The position numbers and the translations under genes were made by a program. Source: Vicinamibacterales bacterium (GTDB lineage Bacteria; Acidobacteriota; Vicinamibacteria; Vicinamibacterales; UBA8438). Taken from it: a stretch of DNA of 64,000 bases. Positions 15,315 through 21,062 of this stretch are shown in pieces. The first letter of the stretch is position 1, and each line of letters opens with the position of its first letter. Below the pieces are notes generated by a model, which did not search any database, was not told the origin of the DNA, and saw only the letters and a list, made by a program, of their open reading frames with translations. The DNA is taken from contig CBDCCY010000002.1 in the NCBI GenBank assembly GCA_965215155.1, positions 431,386 to 495,385 on the forward strand, given 5' to 3'.

Positions 15315-16835
15315 GTGCCCGGCGTACTGCTCGCCTGGATCGGCCAGACCGATCTCGATTGTGCAGCCGGGCGGCGGTCCGGGCCGGGCCCCATCGCGAG
15401 CGTCGTCGCCGCCCGCCGTTTCGACGCGCTGGCGCTCCTGTCGAACTACCCGCCGGCGCGCAATCGGGCATTCGCAGCATGGCTGGCGGATGGTGGGGCC
15501 CCACCGGTCCATCTGCGTCAGGAACGGCTGGACGACCCCACCGACTACGCGGCCATCCACGCGGCTTCCGTCCGGGCGCTGGACTTCGCACGGGAGAGAT
15601 TCGGCGCGGACGCCGACTTCACCATCCACGTCAGTCCCGGCACGCCCGCCATGCAGGCGGTGTGGGTGCTGCTCGCGAAGACCCGCTTCCCGGCAGCGTT
15701 GATCCAGTCTCACGAGAAGACCGGTGTCCGGCCAGTTTCCATCCCGTTCGACATTGCGGCCGAGTACGTCCCGGCCGTCCTCCGCGGCGCGGACGAGAAG
15801 CTGACGCGCCTCACCGTCGGCCTGCCGCCCGAATCACCCGAGTTCGACGCCATCATCGGCCGCAGTCCGTCGCTGGAACGAGCCCGGGCGCGCGCCCGCC
15901 GCGTCGCCCCGCACGACGTCACCGTCCTGATCGAGGGCGAGTCCGGCACGGGCAAGGAACTGTTCGCGCGCGCCATCCACGCCGAGAGCCGCCGCCGCGG
16001 GGGGCCGTTCGAGGAGGTCAACTGCGGTGCCCTGCCCGAGGGCCTCGTCGAATCGCTGCTCTTCGGGCACACGCGCGGCGCGTTCTCGGGAGCCGTCCGC
16101 GCGCACCCCGGCCATTTCGAGACGGCCGGCGGCGGGACGCTGTTCCTCGACGAGATCGGCGAGTTGCGCCCCGACGCGCAGGTCAAGCTGCTCCGAGCGC
16201 TCCAGGAGCAGACCGTCCGGCGACTCGGGTCCGACCGGGCGATCCGCGTAGACGTCCGCATCATCGCCGCCACCAACCGGGACCTGCTCGCGGAGGTGGC
16301 GGCCGGCCGCTTCCGCGAGGACCTGTACTACCGGCTGGCGAGCGGCGTCATCCGTCTCCCGCCCCTCCGCGAGCGCGAGGGCGATCTCACGCCGCTCATC
16401 GACCACTTCCTGGCGGCCGCGAACCGCAAGTTCGGCGACCAGCCCGGCGTGGAGCAGAAGGTTCTTTCTCCATCCGCGAGGAACCTTCTACTGCGACACC
16501 CGTGGCCCGGCAACGTCCGCGAACTGCAGGCGACGCTGGACCGGTTGGTGCTCTGGGTGTCCGACCCCGTCGTAACCGCCGAAGACGTTCGCGAAGAACT
16601 GCTCACCACGCCTCGCGACGCAGCCGTCGGCTTGCTCGGCCGACCGCTCGGCAGCGGCCTGGAGTTGCCGAAGCTCATGGCGGAGCTCGCCCGCCACTAC
16701 CTGGCGCGCGCGCTCGCGGAGGCGAAGGGCAACAAGACGCGCGCCGCAGAGCTGATCGGTCTGCCCAGCTACCAGACCCTCACCAACTGGGCGAAGCGCT
16801 ACGATGTGACGCTGCCGGGGGACCGCGCGCGCTGA
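15315..16835 (+). CDS. Sigma-54-dependent transcriptional activator with an RtcR-type CARF N-terminal sensor domain
   Basis: Central AAA+ domain: [12 protein letters not shown] (Walker A), [15 protein letters not shown] (GAFTGA loop variant), [12 protein letters not shown] (Walker B), and [10 protein letters not shown]...[9 protein letters not shown]. C-terminal Fis-type HTH: [24 protein letters not shown]. The N-terminal ~175 aa ([11 protein letters not shown]...[31 protein letters not shown]) is collinear with E. coli RtcR CARF landmarks recalled from memory (GFVGTVLD...YLIHITTGTHVAQICWFLLAEARYLPARLIQS). GTG start at 15315; an alternative GTG lies about 27 nt upstream. Confidence 0.85.
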   Translation: [506 protein letters not shown]

Positions 16836-16851
16836 TGGCACGGCCATTGCT
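16836..16851 (+). promoter_or_regulatory. Sigma-54 (-24/-12) promoter
   Basis: TGGCACGGCCATTGCT matches the TGGCACG-N4-TTGCW consensus exactly. It begins one nt after the activator stop codon (TGA 16833-16835). The predicted +1 is near 16862, 5 nt before the ATPase ATG (16867). Confidence 0.8.
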
Positions 16852-16866
16852 TCTCTGGCGGGCGAC

Positions 16867-19372: not shown

Positions 19373-19374
19373 TA

Positions 19375-20112
19375 GGCTCGACCGGTCACAAGGACGAATC
19401 CGCCGATGCCAGTAACGTCGAAGCGATCGCGATGCTGATCAAATCGAACGCTGCCGAAGATGAAGAATCACACCTCCCTTCTGACCGCGGCGATGACTCC
19501 GAAACCGCGCAGCGACTTCGATTTGTCAAGTCCGCCCGCAAGGACTGTCAGCGCCTGTCCCAGCTCGTCGCCAGGATGGAACGCCGCGATTTCACCCAGC
19601 AGGAGTTCGACGATCTGATCTTGGCCATTGCGGCTCATCCACCGCACAGAGAGCCGGAACTCGTCACTGCGAAGACCGGTCTGCGTGTCCAGATGTCGGA
19701 CGTCGGCGTCGGGATCTCGCAGGTCCTGCCTGTCGTCGTGGCGGCACTCGATCCGTGCCGGCCGGGCATTACCGGCATCGAACAACCGGAACTGCACCTC
19801 CACCCCAGGATCCAGGTAGAACTCGGCGATCTGTTCGCCCATCGGTCGCAGGACGACGGCGTGTTGCTGATCGAGACCCACAGCGAGCACCTGCTGCTGC
19901 GCCTCATGCGTCGCATGCGGCAGACGAGTGACAGTGCGTTGCCGCACGGCGCTCCCCAACTGCGACCGGAGGACATCAACGTGCTGTTCGTCGAGATCGA
20001 TCCCCGAGACGACCAGACGCTGGTTCGCGAGATGCCTCTGAACGAGCGGGGGGCGCTGGTCGAGGCGTGGCCCGGCGGTTTCTTCGAAGAGGATCTGAAG
20101 GAAATCTTCTGA
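19375..20112 (+). pseudogene. C-terminal part of the same ATPase (signature/Walker B/H-loop plus DUF3696-like tail)
   Basis: MSDVGVGISQVLPVVVAAL...GITGIEQPELHLHPRIQVELGDLF...GVLLIETHSEHLLLRLMRRMRQ...INVLFVEIDP...LVEAWPGGFFEEDLKEIF. It is in frame with 16867..18216 once the IS and one TA are removed. The first internal ATG is at 19432. Confidence 0.85.
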
Positions 20113-21062
20113 TGCCCCTTCTGGCCGACTACGCCATTACGCCGGACGTCCCTGGCGAGACGTGCTACCCCACGCCGGGTGAATGTGAGGCTCGCATCGA
20201 AACCATCCGCGAAGCGATGCTGACCGAGGGGCTGGTCCGTGACCTCCGCGACGGCGCGTGGCGGCGTCTCTTCGCGTCGGACGCCCGACCCTGGCACCGC
20301 GGCGGCATCGAACTCGTCAAGACGTTGGCCGCCAAGGGACGACTCGTCCAATTCCAGCCGGCCCTGCCTCGTCCACCTCGGGACTACGGGACCTGGTGCG
20401 CCGAAGCCCTGGAAACCCATGCCGCGCACCCCCTGCGCGGAGGAGTGATCGTAACGGAATCGGTGAAGACCGAGCATGCTGACGAACAGCTCGTGGCGGG
20501 AATCGATCGTCTCGACAACGCACGTTGGTGGAAGCAGCGCAGCCCATCGGTGACTCTCGCCCGTTCACTGGCCGCCTATCGAGACCACCTCGACCTGTTG
20601 CTTAGGCACTCGAATCTGCTCGTCTTCATCGATCCGCACCTCGACCCCGCCAAGGCCAGGTACCGCCACTTCGGCCGCCTCCTCGAGAGGGCCGGAGGCA
20701 GGACTCCGGCCCCCAAGATCGAGATCCATCGCGGGTGCCACGACGGCCGGGGACCCAAGGGAAACCGGCCCCGCGCATGCGACGCCGCCTACTTTCGCCA
20801 CCGATTCCGCAACTCGTTCGCCGCTCCCCTGCGAGACTCCGGCCTCACTGCCGAAGTCTTCATCTGGGACAAGTTCCACGATCGCTTCCTGATCAGCAAC
20901 CTCGCCGGGATCTCGCTACCCAACGGGTTCGACACAGACAACGACGCACGCGCCGTTACGCGCTGGACGCGGCTCGGCACGGAGGATCGTGATGGGGTCC
21001 GCCGGGAGTTCCATCGCGGCAGCCGACGACATCCTCTCCGGGGGCAGTTCAGGCTCCCGTGA
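20112..21062 (+). CDS. Uncharacterised partner protein of the ATPase (316 aa)
   Basis: Its ATG overlaps the ATPase stop (TGATG). No family was recognised. The C-terminal domain (about 20565-21062) has the motifs LLVFIDPHLDPAKARYRHF and FHDRFLISNLAGISLPNGFD, both repeated in the second copy at 21665-22183. Confidence 0.75.
   Translation: MPLLADYAITPDVPGETCYPTPGECEARIETIREAMLTEGLVRDLRDGAWRRLFASDARPWHRGGIELVKTLAAKGRLVQFQPALPRPPRDYGTWCAEALETHAAHPLRGGVIVTESVKTEHADEQLVAGIDRLDNARWWKQRSPSVTLARSLAAYRDHLDLLLRHSNLLVFIDPHLDPAKARYRHFGRLLERAGGRTPAPKIEIHRGCHDGRGPKGNRPRACDAAYFRHRFRNSFAAPLRDSGLTAEVFIWDKFHDRFLISNLAGISLPNGFDTDNDARAVTRWTRLGTEDRDGVRREFHRGSRRHPLRGQFRLP

Follow-up and report, generated by a model that had tools for sequence, protein, structure and literature searches.

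A role in switching on defence genes was predicted more than 10 years ago for RtcR-like activators carrying a CARF domain. Makarova et al. 2014 (PMC4012209) reported that such activators, where not associated with rtc genes, head restriction-modification (R-M) and defence operons, and proposed that they are sigma-54 activators sensing ligands derived from infection; in Supplementary File 4 of that work, the neighbourhood of Desulfobacterium autotrophicum reads regulator, HsdR, HsdM and HsdS, with a pfam12476 (DUF3696) ATPase at its edge. RtcR homologues also head the 'superoperons' of CoCoNuT systems, for which RNA fragments ending in cyclic phosphate were proposed as the signal (Bell et al. 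2024, PMC11090510). In this study, a 64-kb stretch of DNA from a Vicinamibacterales bacterium (contig CBDCCY010000002.1; about 70% G+C; hereafter the window) was analysed. It contains a locus in which an RtcR-like regulator gene is followed by a sigma-54 promoter box and by genes for an ATPase and a partner protein, the predicted effector.

Two described systems resemble the ATPase-partner pair. In Menshen, NsnB is an ATP-binding cassette (ABC) ATPase with a DUF3696 tail, in which Arg stands in place of the Q-loop Gln, GxG replaces SGG and the Walker B dyad is altered; its NsnC effectors include the class PB-PLD1, which resembles MIT_C and is marked by an HDR motif and by a conserved acidic residue that follows strand 2 (PMC12065111). 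HEC-03, consisting of an ABC ATPase and a PIN protein, protects Escherichia coli from phage, with both genes being needed, and is toxic on induction (Payne et al. 2024 preprint).

From the results described below, the locus is probably an inducible defence cassette under sigma-54 control, present in this genome as a decayed copy. A preliminary description, made from the sequence alone, had proposed a CARF-gated sigma-54 switch inducing a two-gene ATPase-effector module that belongs to no named system. That interpretation is partly supported, being right in outline and less novel than claimed.

The regulator and its sigma-54 promoter

The regulator and its control elements were located in the window as follows.

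15283..15308, forward strand: palindrome CTGTTGTGCAACAG with a TATGAT box after it that ends 6 nt short of the regulator GTG
15315..16835, forward strand: regulator of 506 amino acids, a CARF-AAA+-HTH (helix-turn-helix) bacterial enhancer-binding protein (bEBP) of the RtcR_PspF2 family, with a GTG start, intact
15315..15839, forward strand: CARF sensor domain of the regulator, residues 1-175, with motifs WIGxTD and SPGTPAM
16836..16851, forward strand: predicted sigma-54 promoter TGGCACGGCCATTGCT, with -24 GG and -12 GC, at the first base past the TGA stop (16833-16835)

The product of 15315-16835 had been read as a bEBP with an intact AAA+ core, and the profile searches agree. Pfam matches were obtained with Sigma54_activat (PF00158, 7.4e-67), AAA_lid_14 (2.2e-19) and the Fis-type HTH_8 (1.2e-4), and both GESGTGKE and GAFSGA are present; a GAFSGA or GAFTGA loop was found in 35 of 43 regulator homologues. 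PADLOC model PDLC01995 (RtcR_PspF2--CARF_AAA_HTH), from which the family name used here was taken, matched at 6.9e-188 with residues 4-498 aligned to model positions 3-480 of 481. RtcR models in PADLOC and NCBIfam matched at 2e-60 to 2e-100. The score against the NCBIfam RtcR equivalog (NF038308) was 337 bits compared with a cut-off of 650, and this alignment begins at residue 66. Because of this score and because no rtc genes lie nearby, the regulator is judged not to be an RtcR orthologue. The earlier observation that rtcA and rtcB are missing extends to the gene tables of syntenic relatives, which hold no RtcB or RTC_cyclase Pfam match.

The N-terminal domain matched the Pfam RtcR model at 2e-4, just under the threshold, and residues 42-134 matched the PADLOC models CARF4 (7e-10), CARF1 (2e-4) and Csx1/Csm6 (7e-3). 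Searching the PDB by phmmer with the single CARF domain sequence gave no match, and Csm6 was reached only with a profile built on 16 such domains taken from related loci. The top PDB match of this profile was the Csm6 CARF domain 6tug_A (E 0.0095), and both WIGxTD, after strand 1, and SPGTPAM, after strand 4, align in it. Together with the full-length RtcR_PspF2 match, these profile comparisons identify the domain as CARF-type and related to that of RtcR, as the preliminary description had supposed.

The box at 16836-16851 reads TGGCAC-N5-TTGCT. The pattern TGGCAC-N5-TTGCW had a single exact match in the 64 kb and none in 100 shuffles. For comparison with relatives, 51 rows were scored, namely 50 regulator-bearing related loci (including a few duplicate contig records) and the window as positive control; in each, the 460 nt around the regulator stop were searched for their best match to GG-N10-GC. 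In 44 of the 51, from several phyla, at least 10 of the 11 positions matched, with the N5 spacer varying; from the shuffle statistics of the window, about 0.003 such matches are expected by chance per 460 nt. The box mostly starts at the first base past the stop and all boxes lie within about 100 nt of it, except two (+194 and +339). It is retained with either the ATPase gene or hsdR as the next gene, and in most Vicinamibacterales loci the ATPase ATG follows 14-16 nt past the box (region 16852-16869 of the window). Because it is conserved in relatives, the predicted promoter is regarded as real. The preliminary description had rightly called it perfect, but had placed it one nucleotide past the stop, whereas it starts at the first base.

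Upstream of the regulator, CTGTTGTGCAACAG is a perfect palindrome, and the arrangement CTGTT-N4-6-AACAGA-N3-4-CTTATGAT is kept 5′ of the regulator across the Vicinamibacterales loci. The region 15283-15308 is probably the regulator's own promoter plus operator, giving rise to a leaderless mRNA.

Two further boxes with one mismatch, both on the reverse strand, were examined as candidate signs of a sigma-54 regulon and rejected. The box at 27990-28005 is a coding coincidence, lying within the Tat-signal codons (...VALPLLD...) of a DUF1552 gene; this gene comes after a large DUF1592-type cytochrome-like gene. The box at 56406-56421 was taken as a coincidence by analogy with the first box only. 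It lies about 100 nt 5′ of an open reading frame (ORF) without a Pfam match, itself 3′ of a paralogous DUF1592-type gene.

The ATPase and its partner

Downstream of the promoter, the first ATPase-partner pair comprises the following features.

16867..18216, forward strand: 5′ part of ATPase 1, codons 1-450, with the ATG at 16867 and Walker A GQNSAGKS
18217..19372, reverse strand: IS630-family insertion sequence (IS) of 1,156 bp, with the transposase at 18227-19300
19375..20112, forward strand: 3′ part of ATPase 1, with IEQPELHLHP, ETHSEH and a DUF3696-like tail
20112..21062, forward strand: partner 1 of 316 amino acids, intact, with a PIN-like N-terminal domain and a C-terminal domain of predicted phospholipase D (PLD) fold

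ATPase 1 is split by the IS. A TA target duplication is present at 18215-16 and 19373-74, and the element has imperfect terminal inverted repeats. The transposase matched DDE_3 (1e-20) and HTH_32 (1.4e-15) in Pfam, so that a DDE_3 transposase, an N-terminal HTH, inverted repeats and a TA duplication, the traits of the IS630 family, are all found in it. The element is single-copy within the window and is not present in the orthologous loci L004, L087 and L088 (individual loci are given by L numbers throughout). Excision of the IS and one TA copy gives a single frame of 695 amino acids, in agreement with the reconstruction made previously.

The reconstructed ATPase matched AAA_15 (5e-18) and AAA_21 (7e-17) in Pfam; the match to DUF3696 (0.003) was below the Pfam threshold and is weak in relatives as well as in the window. 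The top PADLOC matches were NsnB (2e-40), the candidate system component PDC-M55A (2.8e-40) and HEC-03B (6e-31). Alignment of 76 homologues showed conservation of G.NSaGKS, GPLR, DvGxGxSQ, iEQPE.HlHP and ETHSEH and of a highly conserved tail, REMPlNerGELVkAWPGGFFEE. The protein departs from the ABC canon in having Arg for the Q-loop Gln, GxG for SGG and E-Q for the Walker B D-E. In ABC ATPases, E-to-Q mutants hydrolyse slowly. Because of its E-Q Walker B, the ATPase may likewise hydrolyse slowly and act as a nucleotide-bound switch rather than a motor.

The ATPase had previously been called OLD-like and compared with several anti-phage ATPases. The matches to OLD, Gabija, PARIS, Septu and AbiL are restricted to the Walker A region, and these identities were rejected. 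Only the first 45 or so residues match the GajA and Old models and no Toprim match was obtained; having no Toprim domain, the ATPase is therefore not OLD-like. As for a Septu or PARIS type, the locus has no Toprim, HNH or DUF4435 partner.

The ATG of partner 1 overlaps the TGA of the ATPase as TGATG. This overlap and the length of 316 amino acids are as the preliminary description gave them. It had also placed the protein in no recognisable family, and partner 1 indeed has no match in Pfam, NCBIfam or PADLOC; its predicted structure does not uphold the statement, since a PLD fold carrying the HDR motif is recognised, together with a tentatively PIN-like N-terminus. The family is sizeable: clustering at 90% identity gives 523 clusters in one database, and a second database contains 584 representatives at 50%. 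Its members are nearly all free-standing proteins of about 310 amino acids. Invariant in the family alignment are D174 (in FIDPHLDP), H206-R207, W252, H256-D257-R258 and S262-N263.

An AlphaFold2 model of the partner, built from 43 sequences, had a pLDDT (predicted local distance difference test) of 91.6 and a pTM (predicted template-modelling score) of 0.88. With the C-terminal 180 or so residues, Foldseek against the PDB retrieved exclusively folds of the phospholipase D superfamily, including the exonucleases PLD3 and PLD4, the MIT_C domain of MITD1, BJ-TSA-9, Zucchini and SauUSI (E 1e-4 to 1e-2, probability 0.97-1.0). As modelled, the C-terminal half is thus a PLD fold, and the partner is a predicted nuclease. 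The HDR variant of the motif is of the MIT_C/PB-PLD1 type (PMC12065111), and the partner also shares with PB-PLD1 an acidic residue following the second strand.

The N-terminal 150 residues form an alternating beta/alpha domain, which gave a pLDDT of 89 when modelled alone. Its top-ranking PDB entries, at the values given in the last section, were the PIN-type structures 3ix7, the Regnase-type ZC3H12B/C, KHNYN and a VapBC complex. Several acidic residues of this PIN-like domain (window 20145-20510) are invariant or almost invariant, namely D12, D15, E67, D92, E98 and D132. They may form a PIN-type pocket, in which case the domain would be catalytically active and not an 'inactive PIN'.

Conservation of the linkage and decay of the window copy

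Linkage was scanned in 80 loci, with one genome per species, from Acidobacteriota, Latescibacterota, Planctomycetota, Binatia, Gemmatimonadota, Spirochaetia, Proteobacteria, Desulfobacterota, Myxococcota, Verrucomicrobiota and Cyanobacteria. Judged by these matches, the DNA of the window most likely stems from a member of the Vicinamibacteria (Acidobacteriota). The ATPase end meets the partner start in essentially every locus with enough sequence. Among about 66 informative loci at species level, about 49 encode a CARF-bEBP within the cluster. The regulator-ATPase-partner linkage proposed from the window alone is thus conserved across relatives. The loci were arranged as follows.

About 31 loci (Vicinamibacterales, Latescibacterota): CARF-bEBP, then one to three ATPase-partner pairs
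14 loci (many phyla): CARF-bEBP, HsdR-HsdM-HsdS, one pair
8 loci: R-M genes and pair, the locus sequence ending before a possible regulator
5 loci (three cyanobacteria, one Acetobacteraceae, one Spirochaetia): R-M genes and pair without a regulator
3 loci, plus L001-L003: SIR2 gene and an extra ATPase gene upstream
2 loci (L028 and L042, Binatia): regulator divergent from the pair
2 loci: regulator remnants
Several loci: pair only

Thus, the compact form is conserved in two phyla and, appended to regulated type I R-M cassettes, the pair is found widely. HsdR and HsdM of the R-M loci are 63-85% identical between most phyla and 42-64% identical in more divergent loci such as L062, L065, L079 and L080. 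Because of these identities across phyla, comparison of the sequences points to horizontal mobility of the R-M-containing cassette.

Neighbours in the other loci include type I R-M, SIR2, DUF4276 and toxin-antitoxin genes. L001-L003 (434-8948) contain HsdS, a SIR2_2 protein of 1,271 amino acids, an extra AAA_15 ATPase, the ATPase and the partner, and lie in a defence island with DUF4276/AAA, AEP-TOTE and SbcCD-like genes. HsdR has an N-terminal Peptidase_S24 (LexA-like) addition in L024:2477-5248 (1.9e-5) and an N-terminal DUF4145 addition in L068:2175-5633, and a DUF3800 gene lies between hsdS and the pair at L047:7503-8324. In the cyanobacterial loci L057, L059 and L077, the order is HsdRMS-ATPase-partner and no CARF-bEBP was found in about 2.7 kb upstream; this absence is in keeping with cyanobacteria generally not being known to have sigma-54. 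In E. coli, rtcR and rtcBA are divergent, and the divergent layout of L028 and L042 resembles this.

Remnants of a second, paralogous pair and one further gene follow partner 1 in the window; the preliminary description had overlooked them.

20989..21607, forward strand (ORF 20989-21612): remnant of ATPase 2, the first 166 or so residues, found by tblastn with residues 6-166 of ATPase 2 of L004
21608..22183, forward strand (ORF 21665-22183): remnant of partner 2, the C-terminal 190 or so residues, comprising the PLD-like half with HAR
22215..22508, forward strand: gene of a RelB-like antitoxin family (Pfam PF25734, 2.8e-14)

The two remnants are in different frames. Blastn of the closest relative, L087, against the window gave 91% DNA identity up to 21607, and 1,921 bp of L087 are absent from the window at the junction 21607|21608. 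Partners 1 and 2 can be aligned in the PLD half alone (33% identity, E 2e-11), with HDR in the former and HAR in the latter. A DrmD match of the partner 2 fragment (E 0.002-0.006) was dismissed as noise, as full-length partner 2 proteins did not repeat it in Pfam searches.

The intact set of two pairs is present in L004, L005 and L007 (from an Acidobacteria metagenome-assembled genome, MAG), in L087 and in L006 and L019, at an equivalent chromosomal site flanked by genes for an aldose epimerase and an NHL-repeat protein. The order is regulator, ATPase 1, partner 1, ATPase 2 and partner 2, followed in L004 and L005 by the RelB-like gene, which occupies the place equivalent to that in the window. 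No toxin gene is adjacent to the RelB-like gene at 22215-22508. L006 has a ParE/RelB pair on the opposite strand instead of the lone RelB-like gene, and the sequence of L087 stops before this position.

The regulator, the promoter and partner 1 are the sole intact parts in the window. Because ATPase 1 is split by the IS and the second pair has lost 1.9 kb, the cassette is most likely non-functional in this genome, a decayed relic. The preliminary description had treated the locus as a two-gene unit that could be repaired by removing the IS; this does not hold, as intact relatives carry two paralogous pairs and both are inactivated here.

Proposed function and comparison with known systems

What the sequence comparisons establish is the identity of the domains, the conservation of the promoter, the order and linkage of the genes, the translational coupling, the tandem paralogous pairs and the R-M association. 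By analogy with the characterised systems, ligand induction, an ATPase-effector complex, nuclease activity and an anti-phage role would be expected of it. The regulator would be made from its own, probably leaderless, promoter, and its CARF domain would keep the AAA+ ring inactive, as in RtcR, until a signal is sensed; candidate signals are RNA ends with 2′,3′-cyclic phosphate or a nucleotide made in infection. The active regulator would then remodel sigma-54 RNA polymerase at the TGGCAC-N5-TTGCT box and turn on the downstream genes, which in intact relatives would yield two pairs, each of an NsnB-like ATPase and a translationally coupled effector of about 315 amino acids. An ATPase oligomer might hold the N-terminal domain of the effector through its DUF3696 tails, as modelled for NsnB4-NsnC2 (PMC12065111). 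On a phage cue, by analogy with Menshen, Septu and PARIS, the ATPase would free the nuclease, which would be of the PLD-HDR and perhaps also the PIN-like type, or would activate it.

Several observations weigh against this reading. The catalytic HxK(x)4D motif is not present in the partner, HDR (partner 1) or HAR (partner 2) being found instead, and MITD1, its closest structural relative, is not known as an enzyme. The PIN-type matches of the N-terminal domain are non-significant (E 0.1-1.3 overall and 0.1-0.9 for the leading PIN and Regnase-type structures, the best being 0.11; TM 0.45-0.51). A leader of only about 5 nt, unusually short and with no room for a Shine-Dalgarno sequence, is predicted for the sigma-54 transcript. 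As to rpoN itself, the 64-kb window contains no RpoN box, and the conserved promoter speaks indirectly for its presence in the genome. In the window and its close relatives, the cassette lies among metabolic genes with no obvious defence island. Literature searches found no experimental work on the regulator or the partner family, nor on sigma-54/CARF-controlled defence beyond the papers cited here. Finally, CARF domains of the RtcR family do not have the basic residue typical of binders of cyclic oligoadenylates (PMC4012209).

The metabolic surroundings, syntenic in related MAGs, would also suit a stress or nucleic-acid repair operon, in which the CARF activator senses damaged RNA and induces an ATPase-phosphodiesterase pair to process or clear it. 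RtcR, the nearest characterised relative of the regulator, controls RNA repair, and PLD-fold enzymes include repair phosphodiesterases such as Tdp1. We consider such a role quite unlikely, however, as the same pair ends type I R-M operons under the same regulator in many phyla and the ATPase most resembles NsnB and the HEC-03 ATPase, both validated in phage defence; divergent N-termini of tandem paralogues, a patchy distribution over phyla and decay by IS and deletion are, moreover, traits of defence genes. The missing basic residue, a conserved ligand contact elsewhere, bears on another possibility, namely that the CARF domain is controlled by contact with the ATPase and/or the effector in a feedback loop and is not a sensor of a small ligand or of infection. 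Such a loop is unlikely, although Kotta-Loizou et al. 2022 report that RtcAB bind the CARF domain of RtcR directly and are needed for activation, and although the regulator moves with its target genes as one mobile cassette. The regulator family heads operons with differing first genes (hsdR or the ATPase gene), so that a single protein partner is not obvious, and the ligand-pocket motifs WIGxTD and SPGTPAM are strongly conserved.

The pair is found without a bEBP in several loci (cyanobacteria, Verrucomicrobiota and the SIR2-linked form) and can therefore work without the switch. From this it could be argued that the pairs are constitutive, self-contained sensor-effectors and that the box, having served R-M genes ancestrally, is a relic in the R-M-less Vicinamibacterales form. 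Yet about 25 R-M-less species-level loci have a perfect or near-perfect box at the same position and at a steady distance from the ATPase ATG, where a relic would have drifted, and the 31 nt between the regulator stop and the ATPase start leave no space for an alternative promoter; a relic box is accordingly very unlikely. An inducible defence cassette accounts for the R-M linkage and for the conserved promoter better than any of these explanations does. A more elaborate form of the cassette, which we put forward tentatively and hold to be rather doubtful, is a self-amplifying abortive-infection circuit. In it, the CARF-bEBP would respond to a cue such as 2′,3′-cyclic phosphate ends of tRNA or mRNA, arising in infection or through the action of the PIN/PLD effector, and would induce more ATPase-effector complexes; the two paralogous pairs, differing in their N-terminal recognition domains, would widen the range of triggers.

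If such a circuit exists, it would be the first defence system with effector dosage set by an RNA-end-sensing enhancer-binding protein, and the compact Vicinamibacterales form would be a minimal system for finding the ligand of non-Rtc RtcR-like CARF domains. The smallest circuit with an RtcR-like activator seen here comprises a single regulator, a single sigma-54 box abutting the stop and either one or two pairs of ATPase and effector. NsnB/NsnC-like pairs of the Menshen type occur without an NsnA sensor, form a sizeable family that has no Pfam or PADLOC model, and cross phyla as the terminal module of type I R-M cassettes under CARF/sigma-54 control. A profile of the partner family would let defence-annotation tools detect such loci. 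The copy in the window is chiefly useful as a pointer to intact relatives.

With RtcR and its PspF-like relatives (RtcR_PspF1/2 of PADLOC), the regulator shares the three domains, the CARF motifs, a GAFTGA-type loop (GAFSGA here), the Fis-type HTH and targets driven from a sigma-54 promoter. Unlike in the case of RtcR, it is encoded in the same direction as its targets, with the promoter directly against its stop codon, and rtcA and rtcB are missing. It differs from the R-M-linked RtcR relatives in that the targets in the window lineage are an ATPase-effector array with no R-M genes. The CoCoNuT superoperons are similar in that an RtcR-like CARF activator comes first in a defence operon whose genes all run in one direction and frequently include type I R-M genes; their effectors, however, are of the McrBC type with HEPN domains, and no such genes are present here.

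Septu (PtuAB), PARIS (AriAB) and Gabija (GajA) are comparable in that an ABC ATPase oligomer controls a nuclease, and the ATPase has weak matches to them in the Walker A region; the locus differs in that its ATPase is not fused to Toprim and has no partner of the HNH, Toprim or DUF4435 type. HEC-03 is likewise a two-gene ABC ATPase-effector system and sits inside larger defence operons as the pair here does in R-M operons. Its effector, in contrast, is a VapC-like PIN protein without a PLD domain and it has no dedicated CARF-bEBP; the partner matches no HEC-03 model in PADLOC.

Menshen offers a further comparison. The ATPase shares with NsnB the ABC core, the DUF3696 tail and the kinds of motif departure, and the partner appears to have the layout of NsnC, a variable Rossmann/PIN-like N-terminus joined to a C-terminal effector domain, with a PLD fold and HDR motif that fit the PB-PLD1 class, though it matches no NsnC model in PADLOC. 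The differences are that NsnA, the ParB-DUF262 sensor, is missing, no DUF262 appearing at the window locus or in any gene table examined for the related loci; that the upstream gene is a CARF-bEBP (HsdS in other phyla) and control is by CARF/sigma-54; and that the ATPase has 695 amino acids compared with 345 positions in the NsnB model. Because a variable N-terminal domain on a conserved effector is the NsnC pattern, the pair is best described as an NsnB/NsnC-like module without NsnA. Literature searches did not find the ATPase-partner pair described as a system, nor anything further on PDC-M55. Even so, the statement that the combination is not a named system overstated its novelty, as regulators of this kind were described in 2014 (PMC4012209) and 2024 (PMC11090510) and the partner appears to have the NsnC design of Menshen. 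Defence operons under this type of control had thus been proposed; what is new is a CARF/sigma-54-controlled operon with NsnA-less Menshen-like pairs as its cargo.

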